Source: Propionibacterium ruminifibrarum
GTDB lineage: Bacteria; Actinomycetota; Actinomycetes; Propionibacteriales; Propionibacteriaceae
Reading direction: 5' to 3'
NCBI RefSeq assembly: GCF_900289195.1
Contig: NZ_OMOH01000001.1
Span: 414,768 to 446,767 of the forward strand
Length of the DNA stretch: 32,000 nucleotides
Shown piece after piece: positions 6,932-23,053 of the stretch. Within the stretch, counting starts at the first letter, position 1. Each line of letters begins with the position of its first letter. The notes beneath the pieces are model-generated. The model was given only the letters and a program-made list of their open reading frames with translations, did no database searches and was not told where the DNA came from. Made by a program: the position numbers and the translations under genes.

Positions 6932-6990
6932 GCCCGCCCGCCGGGCTCACCGACCGGCGGTTCCGCACCGCAACAGCACCACAAGCATGA

Positions 6991-7022
6991 CGATCCCCCT
7001 GGCAGGGTTGCCAGGGGGATCG
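6991..7022. terminator. Bidirectional intrinsic-terminator-like hairpin between the membrane-protein gene (+) and the tRNA cluster (-)
   Basis: Perfect 14-bp inverted repeat: cgatccccctggca (6991-7004), loop gggt, tgccagggggatcg (7009-7022). Confidence 0.6.
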
Positions 7023-7027
7023 TCACA

Positions 7028-7102
7028 TGGTGGGCGACACTGGGTTTGAACCAGTGACCTCTTCCGTGTCAGGGAAGCGCGCTACCACTGCGCCAGCCGC
7101 CC
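7028..7102 (-). tRNA. tRNA-Val (anticodon GAC), CCA encoded
   Basis: The reverse complement is GGGCGGCTGGCGCAGTGGTAGCGCGCTTCCCTGACACGGAAGAGGTCACTGGTTCAAACCCAGTGTCGCCCACCA. It folds as a cloverleaf with anticodon loop CTGACAC and a GTTCAAA T-loop. Confidence 0.95.
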
Positions 7103-7103
7103 G

Positions 7104-7174
7104 AGGTGGAGACGGGATTTGAACCCGTGTATACGGATTTGCAGTCCGCTGCCTCGCCTCTCGGCCACTCCACC
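7104..7174 (-). tRNA. tRNA-Cys (anticodon GCA), no encoded CCA
   Basis: The reverse complement is GGTGGAGTGGCCGAGAGGCGAGGCAGCGGACTGCAAATCCGTATACACGGGTTCAAATCCCGTCTCCACCT. Anticodon loop is CTGCAAA and the discriminator is U. Only 1 nt separates it from tRNA-Val. Confidence 0.93.
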
Positions 7175-7237
7175 ACGTGGAGAGCTTGCCTCCACCACGA
7201 AGCTTCATGGTCAGTGGATGGGGCCAAGGCCTCTCCG

Positions 7238-7310
7238 AGCGGACGACGGGACTCGAACCCGCGACCCTCACCTTGGCAAGGTGATGCTCTACCAACTGAG
7301 CCACGTCCGC
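7238..7310 (-). tRNA. tRNA-Gly (anticodon GCC), no encoded CCA
   Basis: The reverse complement is GCGGACGTGGCTCAGTTGGTAGAGCATCACCTTGCCAAGGTGAGGGTCGCGGGTTCGAGTCCCGTCGTCCGCT. Anticodon loop is TTGCCAA. Confidence 0.95.
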
Positions 7311-7350
7311 ATCGCTTGTTCGAGGTTCCCCTCGGCGAAGCGCGGAGACC

Positions 7351-7379
7351 ACAATAGCGAACTCGCACGGGCAGCACAA
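7351..7379 (-). promoter_or_regulatory. Candidate promoter of the tRNA Gly-Cys-Val cluster
   Basis: The minus strand reads GGATTTGTGC-N17-TATTGT about 35-40 nt upstream of the tRNA-Gly 5' end. The GGATTTGT motif is shared with the divergent tRNA-Val promoter candidate. Confidence 0.3.
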
Positions 7380-7615
7380 ATCCGATGTTCCGCGCCACCG
7401 CAACGGCCATGGCGGCGGCCCCGACCGGTTGCCGGTTCACGACCGACGGATCCCGTACCACGCGATCACCCTGGCCCCTCACGCCGACCGCCTCCCGACA
7501 GCGGCAGAAGCACCACTGGAACACTGGGACGGGGTCACGGCCGGTCTCGGCGCCCCGGCGCGCCCCGCCGCCGGATCCGCACCACCCGCCCCCCACGAGA
7601 ACAGACGGCAAGGAT

Positions 7616-7645
7616 TTGTCCCGGCACGGCGCGGTGCGCTAGCTT
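7616..7645 (+). promoter_or_regulatory. Candidate promoter of tRNA-Val(CAC)
   Basis: TTGTCC (7616-7621), 18-nt spacer, TAGCTT (7640-7645), about 11 nt before the tRNA 5' end. It is preceded by the same GGATTTGT motif. Confidence 0.3.
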
Positions 7646-7656
7646 TGGCCAAGCCC

Positions 7657-7728
7657 GGGCGATTGGCGCAGCGGTAGCGCGCTTCGTTCACACCGAAGAG
7701 GTCACTGGTTCGAACCCAGTATCGCCCA
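7657..7728 (+). tRNA. tRNA-Val (anticodon CAC), no complete encoded CCA (ACCg)
   Basis: GGGCGATTGGCGCAGCGGTAGCGCGCTTCGTTCACACCGAAGAGGTCACTGGTTCGAACCCAGTATCGCCCA. Anticodon loop is TTCACAC. Confidence 0.95.
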
Positions 7729-7745
7729 CCGAGATACCGTTTCAT

Positions 7746-7771
7746 CTGCTGACTGGCTGGCCAGGCAGCAG
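7746..7771 (+). terminator. Hairpin downstream of tRNA-Val(CAC)
   Basis: ctgctgactgg / ccaggcagcag gives 10 bp with one A-G mismatch and loop ctgg. There is no clear T-tract. Confidence 0.35.
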
Positions 7772-8145
7772 AATGTGTGGCCCCACCGAGAGCGCCGACC
7801 CGTGCCCCCGCCGTCGAAAGCAGCTGGACGATCGCGCATCCGGCGCAACGACCGGCCAGACTGAACCAGGTCGACCGACACTCACCGACTCAGGCCGCGC
7901 CACAGCCACTCCCCCGCGCCCGGCGGAAAAATGCTGTTCCTCGGGCCCGCAATCGGGCCCCACAGAAGATTCTTCGGCCTCGACCGCCTCGTGAGAGCCG
8001 GAGAACAGGGACGTCCAACTCACCCAGTTTGATTATTTTGTTTCACATCGTGGACAGCAGACTTGTCATTTCCAACAAAATGTCCGAAAGTTGAGACACC
8101 ACGGCAACGGTGCCGCCCTGACAGTAACAAGAGATAGGGCATGCT

Positions 8146-8934
8146 ATGACTGCACCGGCACTGATCCTGTTGGCCGATGGTGCTGAGGAGATCCGGCTGC
8201 TGCGCAAGCGGATGCAGATGCAGCGCCCCGAGTTGCCCGTTCACCTCGCGTTCCTCGATCAGTGCCCACCGAGCGCCCCGCAGGTCGTCGGCGCCCTCGC
8301 CTCCCGCGGGATTCGCGAGGCGGTGTTCATCCCCATGTCCCTGACCCACGCCGTGGACGTGGGACAGTCGGCCAGTGACATGTTCCAGCGCGTCCGTGCG
8401 GCGCACCCCGACATGAATCTCGCCATGGCCCGTCCGATCGGCCCGGCCGCCGAACTCCTCAGCATCCTCGACCTGCGGCTGCGCAACGCCCTGTCGAGCT
8501 GCCACGCCCTCGAACTCGATGGTCTCGTCCTGGCAACCCCGGACAGCGGCGACGTCCGCGGGCAGAGCCTCATCGCCCGGCGCGCCCGGCAGTGGAGCTC
8601 ACATCACCGGCTGCCGGTCGCCATGGCCAGTGTCGACGGTTCTGGTTCGTCCATCGTCTCGGCAATCAACCTGCTGCGTGAGCAGGGTCGCAGGGCCATC
8701 GCGGTGGGGTCCCTGTTCCTCACCGCATCGGAGAGTTTCATGGCGGCCGTCGAACAGGCCCTGTCGGCGGGCGCCCTCACCATCAGTTCTCCGCTCGGCG
8801 CCGACGAACGCATCGTCGAACTCGTCATGAGCAGGTATTCGTTCGCCGCCATGGACATGCTCGACGCCGTGCCGGCCGATGAGCACCTGGGCGATGACGT
8901 CATCACCAGTTCCCTCGAGTTGATCGCTCTCTGA
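8146..8934 (+). CDS. CbiX/SirB-like (sirohydrochlorin chelatase family) two-domain protein with a degenerate N-terminal motif
   Basis: 262-aa ORF with two tandem CbiX-like halves (ALILLADGAEE...AVFIPMSLTHAVDV and LDGLVLATPDSGD...AIAVGSLFLTASESF). The family assignment comes from pattern recall, not a search. Confidence 0.6.
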   Translation: MTAPALILLADGAEEIRLLRKRMQMQRPELPVHLAFLDQCPPSAPQVVGALASRGIREAVFIPMSLTHAVDVGQSASDMFQRVRAAHPDMNLAMARPIGPAAELLSILDLRLRNALSSCHALELDGLVLATPDSGDVRGQSLIARRARQWSSHHRLPVAMASVDGSGSSIVSAINLLREQGRRAIAVGSLFLTASESFMAAVEQALSAGALTISSPLGADERIVELVMSRYSFAAMDMLDAVPADEHLGDDVITSSLELIAL

Positions 8935-9010
8935 CCATCTCGGCCCCGTCGGTCGATCGGGGCCTGGATTCGGCGAGCTAGTCTCTCGGCAACGTTTTCA
9001 GGAGGCAGTC

Positions 9011-9427
9011 ATGGGTGAGTATCCCATTGAGAAGACCGATGAGCAGTGGCGCGCGGAACTGAGCCCGCAGGAATTCCAGGTACTGCGCCGTGCCGGGACC
9101 GAGGCCCCGTTCACGGGCGAGTACGACAACACCTTCACTGAGGGCGTGTACAGCTGCCGCGCCTGCGGCGCCGAACTCTTCCGTTCCGAGACGAAGTTCG
9201 CCTCACACTGCGGCTGGCCCAGCTTCTACTCCCCGCTGGCAGCCGACCGCGTACGGTATCTGAGCGACACCTCGATCCCGGGCAGGCCGCGCACCGAGGT
9301 GCGGTGCGCCGCCTGCGGCTCGCACCTCGGCCACGTCTTCGAGGGCGAGGGCTACGACACCCCCACCGATCAGCGTTACTGCATCAACTCGATCAGTCTG
9401 AGCTTCGCCCCGGCCGCCGAGGCCTGA
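9011..9427 (+). CDS. msrB: Peptide-methionine (R)-S-oxide reductase
   Basis: AGGAGG SD upstream. The sequence has two CxxC zinc motifs (CRACGAELF, CAACGSHLGHVF), GWPSF, and the catalytic RYCINS motif. Confidence 0.92.
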   Translation: MGEYPIEKTDEQWRAELSPQEFQVLRRAGTEAPFTGEYDNTFTEGVYSCRACGAELFRSETKFASHCGWPSFYSPLAADRVRYLSDTSIPGRPRTEVRCAACGSHLGHVFEGEGYDTPTDQRYCINSISLSFAPAAEA

Positions 9428-9515
9428 TCGTGACGCGCCCAGGCACCGGGCCATCTGCCCCCTCGCCGCGGCGTGGCGTCCGGGACTGGGGGTGAGCAGA
9501 TCGTAGTGTCAGGGC

Positions 9516-10121
9516 ATGCCCACGCCCACGGACCTACGTGACCGCTTCGGCGCCGATGCCTTCAACCGTGTCGTGGCCGAGCTCAAGGCATTCGGCTGGA
9601 GACCCGACATCAGTGTTGAGGAGATCGGCGCCCCCCAGCGCATCGCACCATACGGTTTTGCACTGGAGGCGGAACTGGGCGCCTCGGACGAGGAACGCGG
9701 GTCGGGGCGGCTCATCCTGCTGCACGACCCCGCCGGCAACGACACCTGGGACGGACAGTGGCGGCTCGTCACCCTGGTCCGAGCAGGAACAGACACCGAC
9801 ATCGTCACGGACCCCCTGATCAGCGAGGTGGCCTGGAGCTGGCTCATCGAGGCGCTCGGCGAGTGCGACGCGGCCTTCACCGCCCCCGCCGGCACGGTGA
9901 CCACCGTGACCAGCCGGTCATTCGGTTCGATGAGCACCGAGGCCGATCGCGACGAGATCGAGATCCGGGCGAGCTGGACCCCCCTCATCGCCGACCCGTC
10001 CGACATCATCGGGCACCTCGGCGCATGGCAGCAGCTCATGTGTCAGGCGGCCGGCATGCCGCCCCTGCCCGACAAGGTCACTCCCATCCGCGCCAACCTC
10101 TCTGTGACAGGAACACGATGA
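9516..10121 (+). CDS. DUF3000-like conserved actinobacterial protein
   Basis: 201-aa ORF whose stop overlaps the RNase D-like start (ATGA at 10118-10121). A conserved protein directly upstream of the HRDC exonuclease is the usual actinobacterial arrangement. The family name is from memory. Confidence 0.7.
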   Translation: MPTPTDLRDRFGADAFNRVVAELKAFGWRPDISVEEIGAPQRIAPYGFALEAELGASDEERGSGRLILLHDPAGNDTWDGQWRLVTLVRAGTDTDIVTDPLISEVAWSWLIEALGECDAAFTAPAGTVTTVTSRSFGSMSTEADRDEIEIRASWTPLIADPSDIIGHLGAWQQLMCQAAGMPPLPDKVTPIRANLSVTGTR

Positions 10122-11431
10122 AGGCCACGGACCTCACACATGACTCCGAGACAGGCCGCAACGGTCAGATCGACCCGGACTCCGGCCTGCCCATTCTGGC
10201 GATCCCCCGCGAGGGCATGCCGCCTCTGGTCGACACGGCGGAGAAACTGGCCGAATGCGTCCACGCGCTCGGGTCGGGCACCGGCCCCGTCGCCATCGAC
10301 ACGGAGCGCGCCCAGAGCTTCCGGTACAGCGGGCGCGCCTACCTGCTGCAGCTGCGCAGGCCAGGAAGCGGCACCTGGCTCATCGACCCGCAGGCCTTCG
10401 AGCCCGGGGATGGTTCGGTGGCCGACCTCAGCGCGTTGCGTGAGGCGATCGTCGACTGCGAGTGGGTCATCCACGCGGCCACGTCCGACCTGCCCTGCCT
10501 GACCGAGCTCGGGCTGCTGCCCGAGAAACTGTTCGACACCGAGGTGGCCGGACGCCTGCTCGGCCTGCCCCGCGTCGGGCTGGGCACGATGGCCGAGACC
10601 TTCTTCGGCGTCCATCTCCTCAAGGAGCACTCGGTCGCCGACTGGTCCAGGCGGCCACTGCCCACCGACTGGGTCGCCTACGCGGCGCTCGACGTCGAAC
10701 TGCTCGTCGAACTGCGGGACCTGCTGTGGCGGCGGCTGCACGCCGAAGGCAAGTGGTCCTGGGCCCAGCAGGAGTTCCAGCACCTGATCGACACCCACCG
10801 CGAACCCCACCCCCCCGTCGCCGAGCCCTGGCGGCACGTCAACGGGGTGCACTCCGTGCGCACCCGCCGCGGGTTGGCGCTGGTGCGCGAGATCTGGGGT
10901 GAACGTGACCGGCTGGCCCGCGACTTGGACCGGGCGCCGAGCAAGATCCTGCCGGACAAGGCGATCAGCGAGCTGGCCGGCCAGGTCACCAAGGACTCCC
11001 CCGGCGTGCCGGGGATGGCCGAGATGGAGGCGATCGCGGGGTTCAAGCGGCGCAACGCCCGCCGCTATCGCGGGCGGTGGCTCGCCGCCGCGGGGCGTGT
11101 CGCGGCGATGCCCGAGTCGCAGCTGCCGCGTCTGCGCGTGCCGTTGGAGGGGCCCTCCCATCAGCCGCGCAACTGGCAGCGCAGCAACCCGGACGCCTGG
11201 CGCCGCTGGCAGCGCGTACGGCCCGCGATGAACCGCCTGGCCAAGGCCCTCGACATGCCGCCCGAGAACCTCATCGCGCCCGAGGCGCTGCGCCGGCTCG
11301 CCTGGGAACCGCTGGAGGCCGTCGACCGCGGTCACGTCGCCCGGCGCCTGTCGGCCCATGGCGCACGCGAGTGGCAGTGTCGCCTGGCGGCTCCGGTGAT
11401 CGTCGCGGCGCTGGAGTCCGCACCCGGCTGA
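10118..11431 (+). CDS. rnd: RNase D-like 3'-5' exonuclease with HRDC domain
   Basis: In-frame ATG at 10118 within ORF 9758..11431. The sequence has a DEDD exonuclease motif (VAIDTERAQSF...HAATSDLPCL...YAALDVELL) and an HRDC-like C-terminal half. Confidence 0.82.
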   Translation: MKATDLTHDSETGRNGQIDPDSGLPILAIPREGMPPLVDTAEKLAECVHALGSGTGPVAIDTERAQSFRYSGRAYLLQLRRPGSGTWLIDPQAFEPGDGSVADLSALREAIVDCEWVIHAATSDLPCLTELGLLPEKLFDTEVAGRLLGLPRVGLGTMAETFFGVHLLKEHSVADWSRRPLPTDWVAYAALDVELLVELRDLLWRRLHAEGKWSWAQQEFQHLIDTHREPHPPVAEPWRHVNGVHSVRTRRGLALVREIWGERDRLARDLDRAPSKILPDKAISELAGQVTKDSPGVPGMAEMEAIAGFKRRNARRYRGRWLAAAGRVAAMPESQLPRLRVPLEGPSHQPRNWQRSNPDAWRRWQRVRPAMNRLAKALDMPPENLIAPEALRRLAWEPLEAVDRGHVARRLSAHGAREWQCRLAAPVIVAALESAPG

Positions 11432-13550: not shown

Positions 13551-14678
13551 ATGACCGGACATCATGTGCCAGCGCCCGGCGGCGGTCAGCCAGTCGGTGG
13601 CGTCGCCCTGCCCGTCACCGAGCTCTTGGCGTCCCTGACGGACGTCGTCGCCCAGGTTCACGCCACCCTCGGCCCCGACCAGAGCGGCCTGTGCGTGCAC
13701 CGCAACCTGACTGCGGCACGCTGCCAGACCGTCCAGATGCAGACCCGGCCGCGTCCCGTGGGAGAGCTGAAGCCGATGACCTGCCTGCTCGACCCGGGCA
13801 GCACGTGCATCCTGGCCGGACCGCGCCTGAAGTGCCCGCGGGCGATGGACGAGAAGGACGTCGTCCGGGTGGGCTTCGGCAAGGACGACGAGTTCGGGTG
13901 GTTGTGGCACGCGCACCTGGGCGGCACCGATCCCGCCCGCCGGCAGGCCGAGGAACTCGTCCTGGTGGCGATGGCCGGCATGGCCGAACGGTTGATCTCC
14001 AGGGCGATCCAGGCCGACGACTCCGAGGCGCGCATGATCGCCGGCGAACGCGAACGGATCTCGAGGGAGCTGCACGACGGCGTCGCCCAAGTGCTCGGCT
14101 CGGCTCATCTGCGCCTGTCGGCCCTGGCGGGGCAGGAGGAGCTCGGGGACGAGACGGTCAGCGAACTCACCCAGATCAGCCAGGACTGCGCAATGGCCTA
14201 CGCCGACGTCCGTGAGGCCATCTGGGACCTGCACATGCCCGAGGAGATGACCGGTTCGCTGGCCTCCGGCATCCGGTCCACGACCGGCGCCTTCGAGCGG
14301 CGCACCGGCATCACCTGCCGCGTCGAACTGGCCGATCCGGGCATCAGCCTGCCCGCCGGCACGCGCCTGCAGCTGCTGCGCGTCGTGCAGGAGGCACTGA
14401 CCAATGTGCGCAAGCACGCGCACGCGAGCACCGTCGACGTGACGATGCGCACCAACCCGAACAGCATCACCATCAACATCAGCGACGACGGGATCGGGTT
14501 CGAGGACCCCGAACCGGCCCCCGGCCACTTCGGCCTGCTGTCGATGCGCGAGCGCATCGAGGGCATTGGCGGGCGCCTGAGCATCATGAGCATCCCCGGG
14601 GCGGGCACCTGCGTCAGCGCGGTCGTGCCGCTCGCTCTGTCCGACGAGAGCCCTCGCGAGGAAAGGACCCGTGTATGA
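13551..14678 (+). CDS. Cytoplasmic sensor histidine kinase (HisKA_3/NarX-LiaS class) with an N-terminal Cys-rich GAF-like input domain
   Basis: H-box ERERISRELHDGVAQ. HATPase_c motifs QEALTNVRKHA, DDGIGF and GHFGLLSMRERI. No TM segments are visible. Five Cys lie in the ~160-aa N-terminal domain. The stop overlaps the regulator start (ATGA). The ATG 13551 start is my choice within ORF 13401..14678. Confidence 0.82.
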   Translation: MTGHHVPAPGGGQPVGGVALPVTELLASLTDVVAQVHATLGPDQSGLCVHRNLTAARCQTVQMQTRPRPVGELKPMTCLLDPGSTCILAGPRLKCPRAMDEKDVVRVGFGKDDEFGWLWHAHLGGTDPARRQAEELVLVAMAGMAERLISRAIQADDSEARMIAGERERISRELHDGVAQVLGSAHLRLSALAGQEELGDETVSELTQISQDCAMAYADVREAIWDLHMPEEMTGSLASGIRSTTGAFERRTGITCRVELADPGISLPAGTRLQLLRVVQEALTNVRKHAHASTVDVTMRTNPNSITINISDDGIGFEDPEPAPGHFGLLSMRERIEGIGGRLSIMSIPGAGTCVSAVVPLALSDESPREERTRV

Positions 14679-15370
14679 ACACGACGCCGACGGAACCGAA
14701 GCACGAACCGATCCGCGTCGTCATCGCCGACGACCAGACACTCTTCCGCCGAGCCGTCAGTGCGCTCATCGGCCGGGAGGACGACATGACCGTCATCGGC
14801 GAGGCCTCCAACGGACTGGAAGTGCTCGAGACCGTCGGCTCGACCGAACCTGACGTGGTGATCCTCGACCTCGAGATGCCGGTGATGAACGGGGCCCGGG
14901 CCGCCAAACTCCTGCGCGAACGGCACCCGGACCTGAAGATCGTCATGCTCACCGTCCATGACGAGAACGAGCTGCTGACCGAGGCCGTGCGCGCCGGGGC
15001 CGACGGCTACCTGCTCAAGGACCTCGAGCCGGCCGAGCTGCTGCAGATGATCCGCGGCGTCATGGCCGACCAGTCCCCCCTGTCACCGAAACTGGTCAGC
15101 GGCCTGCTCAACCAGCTGCGCGTCGGCCTGGACGTGCAGAAGGTCATCGTGCCGGAACCGGACACCGCGCACGGGCTGAGCCGACGCGAGCTCGAGATCA
15201 TGACGCTCGTGTCCAAGGGCATGTCGAACCGTGAGATCGCCACGCACCTGACCATCACGGAGGGCACGGTCAAGAACCACGTGCACAACGCGCTGCGCAA
15301 GCTCGGCATGAGCAACCGCAGCCAGGCCGCCGCGTACATCATCCGCAACGGGCTGAACATCCGGGTCTGA
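14675..15370 (+). CDS. NarL/LuxR-family response regulator
   Basis: REC domain (IRVVIADDQ...VVILDLEMPVMNG...) followed by a LuxR-type HTH (LSRRELEIMTLVSKGMSNREIATHLTITEGTVKNHVHNALRKLG). Confidence 0.92.
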   Translation: MNTTPTEPKHEPIRVVIADDQTLFRRAVSALIGREDDMTVIGEASNGLEVLETVGSTEPDVVILDLEMPVMNGARAAKLLRERHPDLKIVMLTVHDENELLTEAVRAGADGYLLKDLEPAELLQMIRGVMADQSPLSPKLVSGLLNQLRVGLDVQKVIVPEPDTAHGLSRRELEIMTLVSKGMSNREIATHLTITEGTVKNHVHNALRKLGMSNRSQAAAYIIRNGLNIRV

Positions 15371-15410
15371 GCGCCCGTCAGCACCTCCCCGAGCCCTCTC
15401 ACCAGCCCCT

Positions 15411-15500
15411 TTGTGTCTTTTCTGTGCCCAGTTTGTGCCCTTTTCCCCATGGACGCGACAACCCGTCCCCATCATGATTGAGTCAAGAAATTTCAACACT
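15411..15500 (+). promoter_or_regulatory. Candidate nrfH control region: three 11-bp-phased TGTG repeats plus an AT-rich palindromic patch
   Basis: ttgtgtc (15411), ctgtgcc (15422) and ttgtgcc (15433) recur at exactly 11-bp spacing. TTGAGTCAA (15478-15486) sits inside the AT-rich stretch atcatgattgagtcaagaaatttcaaca. Confidence 0.3.
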
Positions 15501-15511
15501 CGTGGGGGTGG

Positions 15512-16012
15512 GTGACCATGACGAGCGGGCGCCGAGCATCCGGCGTACTGGCTGCTGCGCGTCGATGGTTGCCGGGAATCGCTGGACTACTCATCGGCGC
15601 CCTGGTGGGGCTGGCGGCGTTCACGTTCATCTACGCCAACGGTTTGTCCTACCTGGGTCATGACCCCAAGGCCTGTGCCAGCTGCCATGTGATGCAGGAC
15701 TACTACGACGCCTACACCGCCGGGGCGCACCACCACGTCGCCGGGTGCAACGACTGCCACACGCCCCACGACCTCGTCGGCAAGTACGCCGTCAAGGCCG
15801 AGAACGGCCTGCACCACTCGATCGCGTTCACCTCCGGAAACTACCCGCAGAACATCCAGGCGCGAGACGTCTCCTTGCAGATCATCAACAACAACTGCAT
15901 CTACTGCCATGGCGGGTTCACCCACGACGTGCTGGCCAGCCAGCGAGACGGCGACCAGATCATGTGCATCCGATGCCACCAGGGGGTGGGCCATGACGTG
16001 CGGGGCAAGTGA
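15512..16012 (+). CDS. nrfH: Tetraheme NapC/NirT-family quinol dehydrogenase, cytochrome c nitrite reductase small subunit
   Basis: N-terminal TM helix followed by four CXXCH motifs (CASCH, CNDCH, CIYCH, CIRCH). It lies directly upstream of nrfA. The start is GTG 15512 or ATG 15518, with a GGGGTGGG SD-like sequence upstream. Confidence 0.88.
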   Translation: MTMTSGRRASGVLAAARRWLPGIAGLLIGALVGLAAFTFIYANGLSYLGHDPKACASCHVMQDYYDAYTAGAHHHVAGCNDCHTPHDLVGKYAVKAENGLHHSIAFTSGNYPQNIQARDVSLQIINNNCIYCHGGFTHDVLASQRDGDQIMCIRCHQGVGHDVRGK

Positions 16013-16090
16013 CCCCAGCGCCCCGGCCCTGCGGCCCGGGCAACCAGAACAGTCAGCACACCGATCACAGGCACAGGAGGTGAGAAGAGG

Positions 16091-17590
16091 ATGAGCGGAT
16101 CGAACCAGTCCCAGTACAGACCGCGGGTCTCGCGCATGAGCAAGACCGCGATGTTCATCGTGTTCCTCATCGCCGGCGCCCTGGTCGCTGCCGGTATCGT
16201 CGCGCTGCTCACGAGCATCTTCAATCACAAGCAGGAGGGCAGGGAGCAGTTCACCCAGGTGGTCGAGCTCGACGAGACCGTGGTCGACCCGGCCGTGTGG
16301 GGCCAGAACTTCCCCGAGCAGTACGAGTCGTACATGATGACGAGCGACCCCCGCCCCGGGAACTACTTCCCCAGGACACCGACCGCCGATGATCCCCGCG
16401 AGTGGACCACCTACGACAACCTGGCCAACGACGAACGCCTGGTGACCATGTGGGCCGGCTACCCGTTCTCGGTGGACTACACCGAGCCCCGCGGGCACAA
16501 CTGGATGCTCATCGACCAGCGCTACACCAAGCGGACGACGCAGTTCAAGCAGCCCGGCTACTGCCTCAACTGCCACGTCAGCGTGCCGAAGCTGTTCACC
16601 GACCTGGGTAACGGCGACACCGTGGCCGGCTGGGAGAAGATGAACGCCATGACCTATGACGACGCCTACGAGATCGCCAAGGACAACGGCCCGATAGCCT
16701 GCATCGACTGCCACGATCCCGCGACGATGGAGCTGCGTGTCACGCGTCCGGCCTTCATGAGGGGCATCGCCGCCTACAAGGCCTCGCAGGGCGTCTCCGA
16801 CTACGACGTGAACCGCGACGCCTCCACCCAGGAGATGCGCACCTACGTCTGCGCCCAGTGCCACGTCGAGTACTACCGGTCCCCGGAGGACGACAACCTG
16901 ACGTTCCCGTGGAGCAAGGGCCTGACGATCGACGACGCGTACAACTACTACCAGGAGATCGACTTCACGGACTTCACGCACGAGCTCACCGGGGCCTCGA
17001 TCATCAAGGCACAGCACCCCGACTTCGAGACCTGGCAGAACGGCACCCACGGTCAGGCCGGCGTCACCTGCGCCGACTGCCACATGGCGTACCAGAGCGC
17101 CGGCGCGAAGAAGGTCAGCAATCACCACGTGACCTCGCCGATGGACGACGTCAACGGAACGTGCGGCACCTGCCACAAGGTCTCCGACGATGAACTCAAG
17201 GCGCGCGTGGCGACGATCCAGACCCGCTTCTACCAGGCGCGGGACGTCTCCTTCGACGCACTGGTCGCCCTGATCGATGACATCGAGAAGGCCCAGAGCA
17301 ACGGCACGCCCGCCGATCGCGTCGAGGCTGCGCGCAACTACCAGCGCAAGGCGCAGTTCTACATGGACTACGTCGAGTCCGAGAACTCCCACGGCTTCCA
17401 CGCCCCCGAGTACTCGCTCCGCATCCTCAACGACGTGACCGACACGGCACGCCAGGGCCAGCTCGCACTGACCGGCGCCGATGTCCCGAGCACGCCCGAG
17501 CCGGGTCGTGCCAACGACCAGGCCGCCCCGCTGCCCGCGGGCTCGACCCCGATCAACACGTCCGTCCCGACCCCGTCACCGTCGCCATGA
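16091..17590 (+). CDS. nrfA: Pentaheme cytochrome c nitrite reductase (ammonia-forming), CXXCH-type catalytic heme variant, membrane-anchored
   Basis: AGGAGG SD upstream. Five heme motifs are present: CLNCH, CIDCH, CAQCH, CADCH and CGTCH. NrfA hallmarks EPRGH, CAQCHVEYY and KAQHPDFETW are present. There is an N-terminal hydrophobic anchor and a Pro/Ser/Thr-rich C-terminal tail. Confidence 0.9.
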   Translation: MSGSNQSQYRPRVSRMSKTAMFIVFLIAGALVAAGIVALLTSIFNHKQEGREQFTQVVELDETVVDPAVWGQNFPEQYESYMMTSDPRPGNYFPRTPTADDPREWTTYDNLANDERLVTMWAGYPFSVDYTEPRGHNWMLIDQRYTKRTTQFKQPGYCLNCHVSVPKLFTDLGNGDTVAGWEKMNAMTYDDAYEIAKDNGPIACIDCHDPATMELRVTRPAFMRGIAAYKASQGVSDYDVNRDASTQEMRTYVCAQCHVEYYRSPEDDNLTFPWSKGLTIDDAYNYYQEIDFTDFTHELTGASIIKAQHPDFETWQNGTHGQAGVTCADCHMAYQSAGAKKVSNHHVTSPMDDVNGTCGTCHKVSDDELKARVATIQTRFYQARDVSFDALVALIDDIEKAQSNGTPADRVEAARNYQRKAQFYMDYVESENSHGFHAPEYSLRILNDVTDTARQGQLALTGADVPSTPEPGRANDQAAPLPAGSTPINTSVPTPSPSP

Positions 17591-17615
17591 GACGTTGACG
17601 GTCCCGAGAGGGAGT

Positions 17616-17653
17616 GCGGCACCGGTGATGTGCACCGGTGCCGCGCTTTCTGT
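17616..17653 (+). terminator. Intrinsic-terminator/attenuator hairpin after nrfA
   Basis: gcggcaccggtg (17616-17627), loop atgtg, caccggtgccgc (17633-17644), then gctttctgt. Confidence 0.55.
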
Positions 17654-17745
17654 ACCCCGCACATACCCAAAGGTGGATACCGAATGGAGTTCCTGCTCGT
17701 CACACTGGCAGACAGCGAACGATTCGGATCGAAGACGAACCGGAG

Positions 17746-18819
17746 ATGATGATGACGCGGCACTCGAGCCTGGCCCAGGCCAGACACACGCTGCTGAGCT
17801 CGCTGGGGCTCCCGCCCGACGCGAGCGCCGAGGAGTTGGCCGCGAAGAAGGCCGAGTTGAGTTCATCGCTCACGACCGCATCCGAGGGCCGCTCGGAGTG
17901 GCTCACCCAGCAGATCGCCAAAGTCGACGCCGTCATCGCCCTCGATGCCGCCGGGGCTGACGGTGGCGCCGGTGAGCCGACCGGGCGGGCGGGTGACGAG
18001 CCGGACGCCGCCACGGCCTCCCCGGCAGCCGAGGAGGCCGATCCCGATGACCCGGTCGCCCTCGACGAGATCGATGAGGTGGCCGAGGCCCGCCGCGCCG
18101 CCCGCAAGGCCGCCCGGAAGAACACCGTCCACGGCGCCGACGCGGACACCTCGCCGAAGGCCGCGGGTTCGTCAACGGTGAAGAAGACCCGGAACACGTC
18201 CGCCGGCCGTCGCGGCGGCGACACCGCCAGCTGGGTGGCGCGGATCCTCATCGTCGCCATCGTCGTGGCTGTCGTCCTGGCCGTCTACAAGCTCGGGGCC
18301 CCCGCGGACTCGAGTTCGGACGCCTCGGCCTCGGACCTGATGGGCATGGGGGCCACTGCTACGCCGACGCTCGACGAGGCCCAGGTGGCCGAGCTCGAGC
18401 AGCGGGTCAGGGACAACCCCGAGGACACCGACGCCATGGGCCAGCTGGCCTCGCTGTACGCCGCGGTCGGCGACTACGCCAACGCCTCCAAGTGGCAGGC
18501 CCGGCGCGTCGAGTTGATGCCCGACGACGTCGACGCCCAGCTCACCCTCGGCGTCTCCTGCTTCAACAACGGCGACCTGGACTGTGCCAAGGAGCACTGG
18601 GACATCGTCAACGAACTCGACCCGGACCGCGCGGACCTGCACTTCAACCTCGGCTACTACTACCTGTCGATCGACCCGCCCGACATCGAGATGGTGAAGA
18701 AGGAGTGGAACCGGGTCCTCGAACTCGAACCCGACGGCGAGTACGCCCAGATCGTCGAATCGCACATGGGCAGCTTCGACACCATGACCGCATCCCCCAG
18801 CGCCAGCCCGACACCGTGA
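17746..18819 (+). CDS. Membrane-anchored TPR protein (CcmI/NrfG-like), predicted cytoplasmic N-domain, one TM, extracytoplasmic TPR domain
   Basis: Three consecutive ATGs at 17746-17754 follow GGAG. Basic stretch RRAARKAARK...RRGG, then [21 protein letters not shown]. Three TPR-like repeats are readable by eye (TDAMGQLASLYAAVGDYANASKWQARRVELMPDD, VDAQLTLGVSCFNNGDLDCAKEHWDIVNELDPDR, ADLHFNLGYYYLSID...KKEWNRVLELEPDG). Confidence 0.7.
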   Translation: MMMTRHSSLAQARHTLLSSLGLPPDASAEELAAKKAELSSSLTTASEGRSEWLTQQIAKVDAVIALDAAGADGGAGEPTGRAGDEPDAATASPAAEEADPDDPVALDEIDEVAEARRAARKAARKNTVHGADADTSPKAAGSSTVKKTRNTSAGRRGGDTASWVARILIVAIVVAVVLAVYKLGAPADSSSDASASDLMGMGATATPTLDEAQVAELEQRVRDNPEDTDAMGQLASLYAAVGDYANASKWQARRVELMPDDVDAQLTLGVSCFNNGDLDCAKEHWDIVNELDPDRADLHFNLGYYYLSIDPPDIEMVKKEWNRVLELEPDGEYAQIVESHMGSFDTMTASPSASPTP

Positions 18820-18825
18820 CCGCCC

Positions 18826-19527
18826 ATGGAACCGATCACCTTTCCCCTGGCCCTGCTGGCTGGCGTCGTCTCGTTCGCGTCGCCCTGCTTCCTGCCCATC
18901 GTGCCGGTCTACGTCGGATACGTGGCACAGGGGCGTGACGGCGCGGCGGGCTCGCGCCGTCACGCGGTGACAGGGGCGCTGTTCTTCGTCCTGGGCTTCT
19001 CGGCCGTGTTCATGGCGCTGTGGGCGTCGTTCGGCACCCTCAGCGAGCTCCTGGCCGGGCACCGAGCACTCCTGCGCATCATCGGCGGGGCGATCATCAT
19101 CGTGATGGGGCTGTACGTGGCCGGCCTCATCCGGCTGGCACCGCTCGACCAGAACAGCCAGCCGCTGCTGCGCGCACGCCGGTCGTCGCGCCCCGGACTC
19201 GCCTCCTTGCTCATGGGCGTGGGTTTCGGGGCGGGCTGGACCCCCTGCATCGGGCCCGTCCTGGGCGGCATCATCGCGCTGGCCCAGATGAGTTCCTCCG
19301 CCGGGCGCGGCGCCCTCCTCATGGCGGTCTACTGCCTCGGGCTGGGGATCCCGTTCGTCCTGGTGGCGGCCGGGGCCTCGCAGCTGTGCGACAGGCTCGG
19401 CTGGTTCCAGCGCCACCACGTGGCGGTCTCGCGCGTCTGCGGCGCGCTGCTGGTGGTGACGGGTTTCCTGATCATCACGAATCTCTTCGAGCGTCTGGCC
19501 GGCTTTCTTCCGGTGCCGGCCCCCTGA
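18826..19527 (+). CDS. ccdA: Cytochrome c biogenesis thiol-reductant transporter CcdA (DsbD-family membrane protein)
   Basis: Starts MEPITFPLALLAGVVSFASPCFLPIVPVYVGY, and the second conserved Cys lies in GWTPCIGPVLGGI. Multi-pass membrane protein. Confidence 0.9.
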   Translation: MEPITFPLALLAGVVSFASPCFLPIVPVYVGYVAQGRDGAAGSRRHAVTGALFFVLGFSAVFMALWASFGTLSELLAGHRALLRIIGGAIIIVMGLYVAGLIRLAPLDQNSQPLLRARRSSRPGLASLLMGVGFGAGWTPCIGPVLGGIIALAQMSSSAGRGALLMAVYCLGLGIPFVLVAAGASQLCDRLGWFQRHHVAVSRVCGALLVVTGFLIITNLFERLAGFLPVPAP

Positions 19528-19544
19528 GGACGAGGTGGAACACC

Positions 19545-20975
19545 ATGACGACACCAGCCGACGAGTACGACGAGGCCCCGCAGATCGGGGTCGGCGACTT
19601 CTTCGGGGCGATATACCGTTTCTTCTACAACAAGAAGGTCGGCCTGGCACTGATCCTGGCGATGGGCGTCCTGAGCCTGCTCGGCATCCTGATCGAGCAG
19701 GTGAATCCGACGGTGCGCGCCGATCCCGACATGTACGCCGCCTGGCTGGAGCAGGTGCGCTCGACGTACGGCGGCTGGACGAGCGTGCTCGACGCGATCG
19801 GTTTCTTCCACATGTTCGGCTCCCCGCTGTACATCGGGATGCTCACCCTGCTCGCCCTGTCGATCATCGCCTGCACCGTGCACCGGATCCCGGTGCTGTG
19901 GAGGAATGCGGCGCACCCGAAGACGCGCGTGACACCGGGCTTCTACTCGCGGGCCCGGACCCGGTCGCAGGCGGTGAGCCCGCTGAGCACCGGCGAGGCC
20001 CACGACCAGGTGCGCACGATGCTGTCGAAGGCGCACTTCAGGGTGCTGTCCGATCCTGAGCGCCCCGACCAGCTCTACGCCGACCGGTTCCGCTTCGCCC
20101 CCTTCGGCACGGTGTTCGCCCACTCGGCCTTCATCATCATCCTCATCGGCTTCACCCTGACGGGAGCGGCCGGTTTCCAGGACGACGAGGTGACGGTCCC
20201 GCTGGAGAGCCGCGTCGAGGTGGGGCACGACACCGGTCTCGAGGTCGAGCTCATCTCGTTCGAGGACAGCTACTACGACGACGGCAGTCCCAAGGACTAC
20301 GTGAGCGATCTCGCCGTCTACCGGGATGGCCAGCAGGTGGCCCGGCAGATGGTGCGCGTCAACCACCCCCTCAAGGTCGACGGGGTGGCCTTCAACCAGA
20401 GCTACTTCGGTGTCGCCGCCGACGTGACCGTCGCCGACGCCGAGGGCATCGAGATCACCACGCAGGTGGTGCCGCTGCAGTGGAGCACCGATGACGGCCA
20501 GAACGCGTACGGGATGATCAACCTGCCCGAGCAGCACCTCGACGTCTACGTGATGACCGCCGCCTCGGGAGCCACCTCCTCCCAGCTGGCTCCCGGTGAG
20601 GCGCGCATCGAGGTCTACGGCGAGGGGGAGCAGACGCTGCGCGGTTCGGGAACCATCCAGCAGGGCTCCCCGGGCACCGTCGGCGGGTTGAAGTTCACCT
20701 TCAACCGGGAGAAGACCTACACCGGGCTGCTCGTGGCCCACGACCCGGGAGCCGTCTGGGTGTGGGTCGGCTCGGGCCTGCTGCTGGCCGGCATCTGCAT
20801 GACGATGCTCGCCCGCCACCGGCGGGTCTGGGTACGCATCAGCGAGGCGCCGGAGGGCGGCTCGCTCGTGCAGTTCGCCTGCCCGGACCGCCACGACACG
20901 TCGTTCGAGAACCAGCTGAACCGCATGGCCGCGAGCCTTGCGGACAATGCCGAGGAGGACACCGAGAATGCTTGA
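19545..20975 (+). CDS. resB: System II cytochrome c biogenesis protein ResB/Ccs1/CcsB
   Basis: In-frame ATG 19545 with GAGGTGG SD. The N-terminus FFYNKKVGLALILAMGVLSLLGILIEQ is followed by a conserved His in CTVHRIP, a large extracytoplasmic domain and a C-terminal TM. It lies directly upstream of ccsA with an 8-nt overlap. Confidence 0.85.
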   Translation: MTTPADEYDEAPQIGVGDFFGAIYRFFYNKKVGLALILAMGVLSLLGILIEQVNPTVRADPDMYAAWLEQVRSTYGGWTSVLDAIGFFHMFGSPLYIGMLTLLALSIIACTVHRIPVLWRNAAHPKTRVTPGFYSRARTRSQAVSPLSTGEAHDQVRTMLSKAHFRVLSDPERPDQLYADRFRFAPFGTVFAHSAFIIILIGFTLTGAAGFQDDEVTVPLESRVEVGHDTGLEVELISFEDSYYDDGSPKDYVSDLAVYRDGQQVARQMVRVNHPLKVDGVAFNQSYFGVAADVTVADAEGIEITTQVVPLQWSTDDGQNAYGMINLPEQHLDVYVMTAASGATSSQLAPGEARIEVYGEGEQTLRGSGTIQQGSPGTVGGLKFTFNREKTYTGLLVAHDPGAVWVWVGSGLLLAGICMTMLARHRRVWVRISEAPEGGSLVQFACPDRHDTSFENQLNRMAASLADNAEEDTENA

Positions 20976-21819
20976 GATCTCTCGATACTGCCTGGTCGCG
21001 GCCACGATCGCGGTGGCCCTGTCCCTCATCGCGCAGATCGTCGTGTCGACGGCCCGTGCGACCCCTGGGACGAAGCAGACGGGGGATGGGCGCACCGCGC
21101 AGCCCAGGGGCCGGGGCCTGGCCCACTACGCGGCCGTGCTCGACCAGTTCGCGTTCCTGTGCCTCACGGCGTGCCTGGTGCTGCGCACGATCGTCGTGCA
21201 CAGGGCGCCGCTGTCGAACCAGTACGAGTTCGCGGTCTCGTTCGTCTGGGGCATCATGCTGGCGATGGTGATCGTCGAATGGCGCACGAGGCTGCGCGCC
21301 CTGGCCCTGGCGGTGCTGCCGGTGGCCCTGGCACTGAGCCTGTACTCGCTGACCCTCGACGACACGGCCACCGAGCTCATGCCGGCCCTGCAGAACGGCT
21401 TCCTGCTCCCCCTCCACGTGGTCACCGCCTCGCTCGGCTACGGCGCAGCGGCCGTCTCGTTCGGCGCCGCGGTGCTGTACCTGCTCCACGGCCACCTCGG
21501 GCGCGTGCGGCTGCCGAGCAGGGAGCGGCTGGACGAGATCGGGTACCGTTCGATCATCATCGCGTACCCGCTCATCACGCTGATGATCATCCTGGGTGCG
21601 ATCTGGGCCAACGTGGCCTGGGGCCGCTACTGGAGCTGGGATCCGAAGGAGACCTCGGCCCTGGTCACCTGGCTGTTCTACAGCGCCTACCTGCACGCGC
21701 GGGTCGTCGGCAACTGGCGCGGGGCCAGGGCCGCGTGGCTGCTCATCCTCGGGTTCGCAGCGGTGATCTTCACCTTCATGGGGAATCTCTTCTTCGGAGG
21801 TCTGCACTCCTATGCCTGA
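20968..21819 (+). CDS. ccsA: System II cytochrome c synthase subunit CcsA/ResC (heme-handling WWD protein)
   Basis: Trp-rich WWD motif WGRYWSWDPKETSALVTWL, conserved His residues and multiple TM segments. The ATG overlaps the resB stop (ATGCTTGA). Confidence 0.88.
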   Translation: MLEISRYCLVAATIAVALSLIAQIVVSTARATPGTKQTGDGRTAQPRGRGLAHYAAVLDQFAFLCLTACLVLRTIVVHRAPLSNQYEFAVSFVWGIMLAMVIVEWRTRLRALALAVLPVALALSLYSLTLDDTATELMPALQNGFLLPLHVVTASLGYGAAAVSFGAAVLYLLHGHLGRVRLPSRERLDEIGYRSIIIAYPLITLMIILGAIWANVAWGRYWSWDPKETSALVTWLFYSAYLHARVVGNWRGARAAWLLILGFAAVIFTFMGNLFFGGLHSYA

Positions 21820-22462
21820 TCGTCACAACGCGGGTTCGACACCGCCGGTCACGCAGCGGGCCACGGCCGGGGAGTCGGGCTGGGCCCGGTTCCGGCGCAG
21901 TCCCCTGTTCACCCTGCTCGTACTCGTCGTCACGGCCGTCGTCGTGATCGCCGGCGTGTGGCTGGTGAACCACCACGACGAATCCGACGAGGCCGGTATC
22001 ACCAGTGTCCAGGTCAGCGGCGGCGCCGGGAAACTGGTCGAGGTGGGCCAGCAGGCCCCCGATTTCGCGGCGGCGACGATCGACGGGCAGACGGTGACGC
22101 TCAGCGAGTTGCGCGGCCACCCGGTCTGGCTCGTCTTCGAGGCCACGTGGTGCGCTGCCTGCCGCTCGGAGGCGCCTGACATCGAGGAGGCCTACCAGCA
22201 CGGCAGGCGGGCGGGGCTCGAGACCGTCGGGGTGTACCTGTCGGAGGATTCCGACGCGGTACAGCGGTACGTCAACACGCTCGGCCTGACGTACTCCCAG
22301 GTTCCCGACGCCGGTTCGCGGATCGCCGGCTCGTTCGGGGTGATGGGCATTCCCAGTCACGTGTTCATCGATGCCGACGGCGTGGTGCAGGTCGCCCACC
22401 CGGGGGCACTGAGCGCCGGCCAGATGATCTCCGAGGTGAACCGCCTGACCGGGCAGGGCTGA
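21812..22462 (+). CDS. Membrane-anchored thioredoxin-like protein (ResA/TlpA family)
   Basis: N-terminal TM (LFTLLVLVVTAVVVIAGVWLV) and a thioredoxin fold with WCAAC active site (LVFEATWCAACRSEAP). The ATG overlaps the ccsA stop (ATGCCTGA). Confidence 0.85.
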   Translation: MPDRHNAGSTPPVTQRATAGESGWARFRRSPLFTLLVLVVTAVVVIAGVWLVNHHDESDEAGITSVQVSGGAGKLVEVGQQAPDFAAATIDGQTVTLSELRGHPVWLVFEATWCAACRSEAPDIEEAYQHGRRAGLETVGVYLSEDSDAVQRYVNTLGLTYSQVPDAGSRIAGSFGVMGIPSHVFIDADGVVQVAHPGALSAGQMISEVNRLTGQG

Positions 22463-22672: not shown

Positions 22673-23053
22673 TCAGCGCGCCCCGGCCCGCAGCGCCTGA
22701 CCGACGAGCGCGACGGAGTGGGACGCCTCGATCAGCCGCGTCTCCTCACGGCGAAGCACCGTCACGGCGTCATCCAGGATTCCCGGGCCGGCGTTCTGCT
22801 CAGGGTCCGCTTGCGTCTGCGCCAGTGCCCTGCGCGTCGCCCTCAGCTGATTGTCGACGTGGTCGGCAGCGAGACGGGCCAGGAGGAGCGGTCTGCGCCG
22901 CAGCTGCGGGTGGGCCATGAACTCGGGCGGGCAGTGGTCGAGCAGGAAGGCCACGGCGTCGCGGCGCATCCGCGCCGAACCCGGTGCGGCCACGCGGGCG
23001 GGCCAGTCGGCCGGGGCCGGGACGCCGGCCGCATGATCGGGAACACCACTCAT
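22673..23053 (-). CDS. Hypothetical protein (126 aa, helical-looking, no recognisable motif)
   Basis: This is the most protein-like of three overlapping ORFs; the opposite-strand ORF is Arg/Pro/Gly junk. GAGGACGG SD-like sequence upstream. It sits 158 nt downstream of the kinase gene on the same strand. Confidence 0.5.
   Translation of the reverse strand: MSGVPDHAAGVPAPADWPARVAAPGSARMRRDAVAFLLDHCPPEFMAHPQLRRRPLLLARLAADHVDNQLRATRRALAQTQADPEQNAGPGILDDAVTVLRREETRLIEASHSVALVGQALRAGAR

Follow-up and report, generated by a model that had tools for sequence, protein, structure and literature searches.

Why does a nitrite reductase gene pair stand next to a complete set of cytochrome c maturation genes in Propionibacterium ruminifibrarum, a cow rumen isolate, and do these maturation genes belong with multihaem cytochromes or are they the general-purpose set of the organism? 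The question is raised by nine consecutive plus-strand genes at 13551-22462 of the stretch analyzed here, a window of 32,000 nucleotides (nt) of the P. ruminifibrarum genome to which all positions refer. They encode a two-component system, the nitrite reductase pair NrfH and NrfA, and five further proteins: a membrane protein with tetratricopeptide repeats (TPR), CcdA, ResB, CcsA and a thioredoxin-like protein. We consider it probable that the nine genes make up a self-sufficient set of operons by which this monoderm actinobacterium carries out nitrite ammonification for respiration or at least in an energy-linked manner, and that their five-gene maturation module represents a distinct lineage of System II cytochrome c maturation which accompanies multihaem cytochromes in Actinomycetota and Chloroflexota. 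The features of the block are as follows.

13551..14678, plus strand: sensor histidine kinase of 375 amino acids (aa), the same length in the public gene call, with HisKA_3 and HATPase_c domains (Pfam, NCBIfam)
14675..15370, plus strand: NarL/LuxR-family response regulator (PF00072, 101.7 bits; PF00196, 66.7 bits)
15420..15478, plus strand: conserved non-coding block upstream of nrfH, near-identical in A. acidifaciens, probable promoter/operator
15518..16012, plus strand: NrfH, membrane-anchored tetrahaem (mena)quinol dehydrogenase, small subunit (TIGR03153)
16091..17590, plus strand: NrfA, ammonia-forming pentahaem nitrite reductase whose first haem site is of the CXXCH type (PF02335)
17609..17651, plus strand: GC-rich hairpin after the nrfA stop codon (folding against shuffled sequences; stem kept in A. 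acidifaciens)
17752..18819, plus strand: bitopic J-like/transmembrane (TM)/TPR membrane protein with a TM helix at residues 165-183 (AlphaFold2 model; generic TPR matches)
18826..19527, plus strand: CcdA, membrane thiol-reductant transporter (PF02683, 53.9 bits)
19545..20975, plus strand: ResB/CcsB, System II cytochrome c synthase subunit (PF05140, 215.5 bits)
20968..21819, plus strand: CcsA/ResC (CcsB in NCBIfam), haem-handling WWD subunit (TIGR03144)
21812..22462, plus strand: ResA/TlpA-like membrane-anchored thiol-disulfide oxidoreductase with a WCAAC motif (AhpC-TSA, 84.6 bits; Redoxin, 69.6 bits)

The initial annotation had read the block as nine consecutive plus-strand genes, with four CXXCH motifs in NrfH, five haem motifs in NrfA, a cytoplasmic kinase and several junctions overlapping by 4-8 nt. 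Open reading frame (ORF) calls and the public gene calls on identical contigs agree on the boundaries of all nine genes, and hidden Markov model (HMM) searches against Pfam and NCBIfam back the assignment of each product. The motif counts hold, with the refinement that all five NrfA motifs are CXXCH, and the kinase does lack an N-terminal TM segment. Overlaps of 4 nt (kinase and regulator genes), 8 nt (resB and ccsA) and 8 nt (ccsA and thioredoxin gene) were found, and the gaps measure 78 nt from the end of nrfH to the start of nrfA, 161 nt from nrfA to the TPR gene, 6 nt from there to ccdA and 17 nt from ccdA to resB.

NrfH passed the TIGR03153 equivalog cut-off (158.9 vs 134.2 bits). Its four CXXCH motifs, among them CASCHVM, a CXXCHxM first haem site with Met59, are invariant in six orthologues, and with a TM helix at residues 20-38 and a gene that adjoins nrfA it has each of the NrfH properties checked. 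NrfA (SPF67368.1) matched PF02335 with 408.8 bits over residues 66-461, and its best matches in PDB were NrfA structures (E = 1.8e-61). As it stayed under the NCBIfam equivalog cut-offs (293.5 vs 595), it belongs to a divergent clade. A lysine-ligated haem 1 motif (CXXCK) was not present among the five motifs checked; the first motif reads CLNCH. This places the protein in the clade with a CXXCH first haem, that of the experimentally studied enzyme of Intrasporangium calvum, which is a recognized NrfA sub-clade (PMC6349771, PMC12285233). The protein begins with an N-terminal signal or anchor and ends in a Pro/Ser/Thr-rich tail. Aligned to the Wolinella succinogenes structure 1FS7, it keeps the motifs PRGH, CAQCHVEYY and KAQH, which we take to correspond to Arg114, Glu217/Tyr218 and Lys274/Gln276/His277 in 1FS7 numbering. 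With the catalytic Arg, Tyr and His and the Ca ligands conserved, the active site is therefore of the Ca type and not of the Arg-substituted type (PMC12285233).

The closest named homologue of NrfA is that of A. acidifaciens (84% identity); the I. calvum protein is 54-57% identical, and other homologues from Propionibacteriaceae, Actinomycetaceae, Intrasporangiaceae and Dermatophilaceae are 53-60% identical. One could argue that the service of NrfHA in the mouth or rumen is detoxification of nitrite, nitric oxide (NO), hydroxylamine or sulfite and not energy-conserving respiration, as the genus is fermentative, its habitat is exposed to nitrite, and NrfA enzymes also reduce NO and hydroxylamine. 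However, the connection to the quinol pool through NrfH is a respiratory arrangement, and I. calvum, the host of an orthologue from the same clade, performs growth-linked respiratory nitrite ammonification (PMC6349771). A purely detoxifying function therefore appears improbable to us, and one role does not preclude the other. That NrfA reduces nitrite to ammonium we infer from its I. calvum orthologue.

System II consists of a synthase (CcsBA or ResBC) and a thiol-reduction branch (CcdA, ResA/CcsX). CcdA has six TM-like segments and invariant Cys21 and Cys141, and ResB (SPF67371.1) has four TM-like segments and invariant His193 and His425. CcsA passed the TIGR03144 cut-off (216.7 vs 187.6 bits) and has invariant histidines (His150, His243 and His280) besides an equally invariant WWD motif (WGRYWSWDPKE). 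A TM helix at residues 34-52 and an extracytoplasmic WCAAC characterize the thioredoxin-like protein; its best NCBIfam match is ResA with 94.8 bits, under the cut-off of 170. Judged from sequence, the block holds the CcsA, ResB, CcdA and CXXC thioredoxin of a System II in full, and the families to which these belong suggest that they would act as the maturation machinery for NrfA and NrfH. NrfA, NrfH, the TPR protein and the thioredoxin-like protein each have a single TM helix, N-terminal or internal, and this predicted topology fits the need of a monoderm to hold proteins at the outer face of its membrane.

In the complete A. acidifaciens genome CP033719.1 (locus L008, about 14981), ccsA carries a 1-nt deletion in a 5' G7 run as compared to an oral-metagenome copy (L007), and the deletion splits or truncates the gene call (227 vs 285 aa). 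Either a sequencing error in the homopolymer or a true frameshift or phase variation could account for it.

Conservation of the block and lineage of the maturation module

Whether relatives keep nrfHA next to the ccs genes had been set beforehand as the test on which the initial annotation could fail. We looked up loci from four independent starting points, namely NrfA in named genomes, NrfA in metagenomes, CcsA, and the TPR protein or its N-terminal domain. The TPR-ccs block lies beside nrfHA in all five other actinobacterial NrfA homologues that were looked up. All nine genes are present in Arsenicicoccus dermatophilus and in A. acidifaciens, in the latter at the same site between dxs and acn. 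Propioniciclava soli has eight genes, without ccdA, and Actinomyces qiguomingii seven, without kinase and regulator; in I. calvum the module stands upstream of nrfHA, between genes for cytochromes with 7 and 10 CXXCH motifs. Among metagenome loci the module was present in 7/7 with an NrfA identity of at least 55% and in one further locus, and more distant nrfHA loci of the CXXCH type showed no module within the contig available. The same order emerged from the CcsA look-up in Actinomyces glycerinitolerans and Propioniferax innocua, and the same nine genes from the TPR and N-terminal domain look-up in Piscicoccus intestinalis and on contig L093. All or most of the gene order is thus found in at least ten other Actinomycetota, and the adjacency, which passed the test, spans at least four actinobacterial families. 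As the flanking genes differ between families, the unit either moves or is retained as a block.

A recent horizontal island in P. ruminifibrarum was considered and rejected, since island proteins are no more similar to their A. acidifaciens counterparts (63-85% identity) than flanking proteins are (41-89%), and the insertion site is shared. The block is old and looks vertically inherited in the P. ruminifibrarum/A. acidifaciens lineage, as far as these comparisons can tell. A search of plasmids found no related NrfA encoded on an actinobacterial plasmid.

The five-gene module is also found on its own. The order TPR-ccdA-resB-ccsA-thioredoxin occurs without nrfHA in six loci from metagenome-assembled genomes (MAGs) of Chloroflexota and two from MAGs of Solirubrobacterales, where three multihaem cytochrome genes (4-7 CXXCH each) precede it and a long NapC/NirT-like cytochrome gene follows. 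The product of the latter has 560-600 aa, and 10 CXXCH motifs in the I. calvum orthologue. I. calvum (L005/L006, 1-9318) has the same arrangement of multihaem cytochromes and module with nrfHA appended, and the module adjoins multihaem cytochrome genes in loci L175 and L176 as well, the former with additional Rieske and cytochrome b genes. Clusters of three to four multihaem cytochromes and the module may encode an uncharacterized respiratory or extracellular electron-transfer complex of monoderms.

Housekeeping ccs loci, as found in three Mycobacterium loci and one Micrococcales MAG, read thioredoxin-ccdA-resB-ccsA, with neither a TPR gene nor an adjacent client cytochrome. An HMM built from six actinobacterial nrf-linked ResB sequences gave 400-840 bits with module-type loci (about 400-750 outside the training set) and 80-100 bits with housekeeping actinobacterial ResB. 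In a single neighbour-joining tree without bootstrap support, CcsA of the nrf-linked actinobacterial loci and of the cytochrome-linked loci of Chloroflexota and Solirubrobacterales formed one clade, and housekeeping actinobacterial CcsA a distant one. By both comparisons CcsA and ResB of the module are a lineage apart from the housekeeping actinobacterial loci, in agreement with the earlier proposal that the module was recruited. This was further supported by one Chloroflexi MAG, which holds the module (L017) together with a separate CcsA locus (L051). In a scan of genome contigs with the CcsA alignment, in which P. ruminifibrarum was not sampled, no nrf-bearing actinobacterium appeared twice among the matches listed.

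These data also bear on a simpler explanation, namely that the ccs genes are the sole, general-purpose System II locus of the organism and that their adjacency to nrfHA is functionally meaningless. All NrfA motifs are canonical CXXCH and hence require no specialized lyase (PMC12285233), as this explanation would have it. Yet the adjacency is kept in unrelated neighbourhoods across the actinobacterial families named above, and both lineage and gene order of the module differ from those of housekeeping actinobacterial ccs. I. calvum, furthermore, has bc1 and aa3 (PMC6349771) and still keeps the module by nrfHA and multihaem cytochromes. We therefore think it unlikely that the adjacency is without meaning, and in a host without other c-type cytochromes being the sole locus and being there for nrfHA are compatible. 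P. freudenreichii has lost most subunits of the cytochrome c oxidase and reductase, which A. acidipropionici keeps (PMC7650540). Since P. freudenreichii belongs to the same genus, NrfH and NrfA may be the main or only clients of the maturation genes in P. ruminifibrarum.

The TPR protein and its J-like domain

The protein that heads the module (SPF67369.1) is publicly annotated merely as 'tetratricopeptide repeat' or 'hypothetical'. Sequence searches with the whole protein and with its N-terminal domain gave at least ten matches each, and we compared the architecture across 15 orthologues from two phyla and modelled the structure with AlphaFold2 from an alignment of eight sequences. All 15 share one order: a conserved cytoplasmic N-terminal domain, a variable, disordered and charged linker, a TM helix that follows basic residues, an outward-facing domain and a Pro/Ser/Thr tail. 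In the P. ruminifibrarum protein basic residues precede the single TM helix and the TPR domain lies C-terminal to it. Residues 3-69 and 209-343 were modelled with confidence, and the outward domain has eight helices, corresponding to three TPRs with caps, at a predicted local distance difference test score of about 90.

The N-terminal 73 aa (17752-17970) carry the motif LLxxLGLxxxASxEDVxxAHxxVxxYLxxAPxxLxxWAxxQxxxxDEAYxLLxDP, which is also found in seven nrfHA-free loci of Chloroflexota and Solirubrobacterales. A profile of this domain matched almost exclusively J domains in PDB (best E = 2.5e-4, whole domain covered), and the model shows a confident three-helix unit. Pfam DnaJ matched none of the 15 members, and at the HPD position these read AAP, GAP or, as in the window protein, TAS. 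With the HPD replaced and no match to Pfam DnaJ, we call the domain J-like rather than a J domain. The new element here is the fifth member of the module, an unnamed TPR protein of the membrane that is conserved and carries a J-like domain on its cytoplasmic side.

Three lines of evidence point to a role in maturation. In two phyla and about 25 loci the next gene after the TPR gene is ccdA or resB, and its position at the head of the ccs genes is invariant whatever cytochromes are encoded nearby. It is separated from ccdA by 6 nt only but from nrfA by 161 nt and a hairpin. Finally, the topology matches that of CcmI and NrfG, the apocytochrome binders of System I (PMC12285233). As in these two, a membrane anchor and a TPR domain at the outer face were found, encoded by a gene inside a maturation operon; a partnership with a System I lyase of the CcmF/NrfE type was not, the neighbouring lyase being the System II pair ResB/CcsA. 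From gene position and topology, we infer that the TPR protein is a candidate apocytochrome chaperone or adaptor.

A different role is suggested by other properties of the protein. TPRs are generic protein binders, and the best matches here are peptide-binding TPRs of unrelated function; the structured cytoplasmic domain has no counterpart in NrfG, and in most actinobacterial loci the TPR gene directly follows nrfA. The protein could thus serve as a scaffold or anchor that keeps NrfA, or multihaem cytochromes other than NrfA, attached to the membrane or wall of a monoderm, or it could be a transmembrane signalling element that connects the J-like domain to the kinase or DnaK, and not a haem-attachment factor. 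We see this as a possible, though on balance rather doubtful, function. The gene stays upstream of ccdA-resB-ccsA-thioredoxin where nrfHA is separated (I. calvum) or absent (Chloroflexota, Solirubrobacterales), its spacing favours ccdA over nrfA, and some loci keep it without the kinase and regulator.

Several observations weigh against the view that the TPR protein is a System II counterpart of NrfG in an invariant and separate module. Membership of the TPR protein in the NrfG/CcmI family was considered and had to be rejected, as only generic TPR similarity was seen in PDB, Pfam, NCBIfam and Foldseek searches. PF23914 (TPR_CcmH_CycH) matched all 15 members under its 42-bit cut-off, with 16.6 bits for the window protein and 36.7 at most, and the NCBIfam NrfG model NF007692 gave 16.9 vs 306 bits. 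The best PDB matches of the TPR domain, by sequence and by Foldseek on the AlphaFold2 model, were designed consensus TPRs, OGT, PEX5 and MamA; NrfG was absent from the top 60 sequence matches and the top 50 fold matches. In Propioniciclava soli and Propioniferax innocua ccdA is missing from the cassette and the TPR, resB, ccsA and thioredoxin genes are kept, and the reductant transporter apparently can be supplied in trans or else is dispensable. Conversely, the Actinomycetes MAG JPMR_maxbin.105 (6172-11198) has a module-type ccdA-resB-ccsA-thioredoxin set without a TPR gene. The gene set is therefore not strictly invariant, and the missing bootstrap support of the CcsA tree is to be counted here too. 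In the same MAG the ccs genes lie directly 3' of a gene for a flavoprotein of the flavocytochrome c sulfide dehydrogenase type, a possible client enzyme.

With these reservations, we tentatively put forward a stronger interpretation, which we would not yet call the expected one. In it, monoderm Terrabacteria would have evolved a distinct sub-type of System II for the maturation of multihaem cytochromes, TPR-CcdA-ResB-CcsA-ResA, and the J-like/TM/TPR protein would be its indispensable fifth component. System II would thereby gain its first counterpart of CcmI/NrfG, whose J-like domain would couple the process to the cytoplasmic side. Together with nrfHA and the two-component system the module would then form a portable cassette that gives nitrite ammonification to hosts without other c-type cytochromes.

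Regulation, surroundings and a working model

The N-terminal domain of the kinase, of about 165 aa (13551-14050), is soluble and has five Cys and no TM segment; residues 1-165 had no family match in Pfam or NCBIfam. Only A. acidifaciens shares this sensor domain, whose place is taken by two TM segments in the orthologous cassettes of Propioniciclava and Arsenicicoccus. Locus L175 has a GAF domain, and in I. calvum a MerR-type regulator replaces the kinase/regulator pair. Since the sensor domain differs among hosts, the input module of the cassette has been swapped between them. In Pfam and NCBIfam searches the combination of a HisKA_3 kinase and a REC-GerE regulator is a pairing of the NarXL/NreBC type. 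Identity with NarXL at the equivalog level was not found, as NarQ (108.7 vs 553), NarX (106.5 vs 578) and NarL, the best NCBIfam match of the regulator (178.9 vs 250 bits), all stayed under their cut-offs. Unlike NarX and NarQ, with their periplasmic P-box sensor, the kinase has neither TM segments nor a periplasmic domain.

Between the regulator gene and nrfH, the block 15420-15478 is nearly identical in A. acidifaciens and the rest of the spacer has diverged. It carries GGACG-N8-CGTCC and two CCCCAT repeats, and is probably the promoter/operator of the nrf operon. Scans for sigma-70 promoters and T-tail terminators gave nothing useful on the plus strand, and no consensus match at 15420-15478. 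The hairpin at 17609-17651, long and near-perfect, was found by reading the sequence and then by folding; the T-tail scan missed it because it has no clear T-tail. The surrounding 83 nt (17588-17670) fold at -42 kcal/mol (z = -4.4), with 0/200 shuffled sequences equally stable. Conserved in its stem in A. acidifaciens, the hairpin is probably a partial terminator or 3' stabilizer that separates nrfHA from the maturation genes.

On both sides the block is flanked by ordinary actinobacterial housekeeping genes. Upstream are pimA, an acyltransferase gene, pgsA, thrS, cbiX, msrB and genes for DUF3000, RNase D and finally dxs; downstream are an OmpR-type two-component system, DUF3060 proteins, aconitase and an ABC-F protein. 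The GC content is unremarkable (about 0.64-0.73 in the window). Three ORFs without a Pfam match, at 22673-23053 (minus strand), 6083-6931 (plus) and 7119-7994 (plus), have coding-like GC at third codon positions or public gene calls. The first of these, an ORF of 126 aa directly 3' of the cassette, is present on contigs of the window organism and absent at that place in A. acidifaciens.

Taken together, we picture the following sequence of events. The cytoplasmic HisKA_3 kinase and the NarL-family regulator would switch the block on, and the Cys-bearing soluble sensor domain suggests that redox state, O2 or N-oxides may be sensed. NrfH would draw electrons from menaquinol and hand them to NrfA at the outer face of the membrane, where nitrite would be reduced to ammonium at a Ca-type site, the first haem being bound to CXXCH. 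The nine haems of NrfH and NrfA would be attached by the products of the five genes that follow. Of these, CcdA and the ResA-like thioredoxin would hold the CXXCH cysteines reduced, and ResB and CcsA would bring haem to the outside and make the thioether bonds. The outward TPR groove may hold the unfolded multihaem apoproteins and pass them to ResB/CcsA, as a functional analogue of CcmI/NrfG suggested by gene position and topology. Owing to the hairpin after nrfA, transcripts of the structural genes are probably much more abundant than those of the maturation genes.

A TPR protein that heads the module in two phyla offers a testable hypothesis on the way in which nine or more haems enter the unfolded multihaem proteins of monoderms. 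For the production of multihaem cytochromes in Gram-positive hosts, the cassette lists the necessary parts in compact form. The cassette also marks rumen and oral Propionibacteriaceae and Actinomyces that are able to turn nitrite into ammonium, which is relevant to nitrite toxicity in nitrate-fed ruminants and to the oral nitrate-nitrite-NO axis. The capacity of Actinomycetota for dissimilatory nitrate reduction to ammonium is better scored by the multi-gene unit than by nrfA alone.

Comparison with known systems

For a linkage between nrfHA and System II genes as such there are precedents in other phyla. In Wolinella succinogenes, nrfH and nrfA are followed by a System II synthase for maturation of the enzyme in one operon, nrfHAIJ, in which NrfI is a dedicated, CXXCK-specific synthase of the CcsBA type (PMC12285233). 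There the synthase is a fused CcsBA that serves the CXXCK of haem 1, whereas the P. ruminifibrarum block encodes ResB and CcsA as separate proteins and an NrfA with CXXCH in all five motifs; in addition, it has CcdA, a ResA-like thioredoxin, the TPR protein and a two-component system. A contiguous nrfH-nrfA-resB-ccsA is annotated in Parabacteroides distasonis (NZ_OY725752.1), a record that is labelled as a plasmid and typed as non-mobilizable. The order nrfA-resB-ccsA is common in gut Clostridia and Bacteroidota, and in Clostridia MAGs (Lachnospiraceae and Oscillospiraceae among them) we found it in at least ten loci. The clusters of Bacteroidota and Clostridia differ from the one described here in that a TPR gene, CcdA, a thioredoxin and a neighbouring two-component system of the NarL type are all lacking. 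In the tree their CcsA belongs to another clade, and with the module HMM their ResB reached no more than 55-99 bits.

The nrfABCDEFG operon of E. coli is alike in that a nitrite reductase is encoded with its own haem-attachment genes, including one for an outward-facing membrane TPR protein, NrfG, which binds apocytochrome (PMC12285233). However, NrfEFG and CcmI belong to System I, with paralogues of CcmF/H, in contrast to the System II found here, and NrfG has no J-like domain. The housekeeping System II of monoderms (resABC and ccdA of B. subtilis, and the mycobacterial genes) shares the families of the thioredoxin-like protein, CcdA, ResB and CcsA. In the mycobacterial order thioredoxin-ccdA-resB-ccsA, of the Rv0526-0529 type, the thioredoxin comes first and a TPR gene is lacking, whereas the thioredoxin gene is the last of the module. 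The NrfAH of I. calvum is the experimental anchor for the function, with an NrfA of the same clade, CLNCH at the first haem and an adjacent NrfH; it differs by the module upstream of nrfHA and by its MerR-type regulator.

The initial annotation had seen in the block the best candidate of the window for an under-described functional unit. The I. calvum paper and its supplementary file make no mention of ccs genes (PMC6349771). Actinomycetota are not covered by a review on NrfA maturation from 2025, in which System II is given no TPR factor (PMC12285233), and the open-access full-text literature gave no description of the cassette or of a System II TPR component. Seemingly undescribed are a complete System II variant of five genes with a J-like/TM/TPR protein at its head, the distribution of this module with multihaem cytochrome clusters in Actinomycetota and Chloroflexota, and the conservation of the nine-gene nrf cassette as a unit in actinobacteria. 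The nrf-ccs linkage will not surprise the specialist, but the TPR/J-like fifth component and a module that crosses phyla are a concrete addition to the biology of System II.

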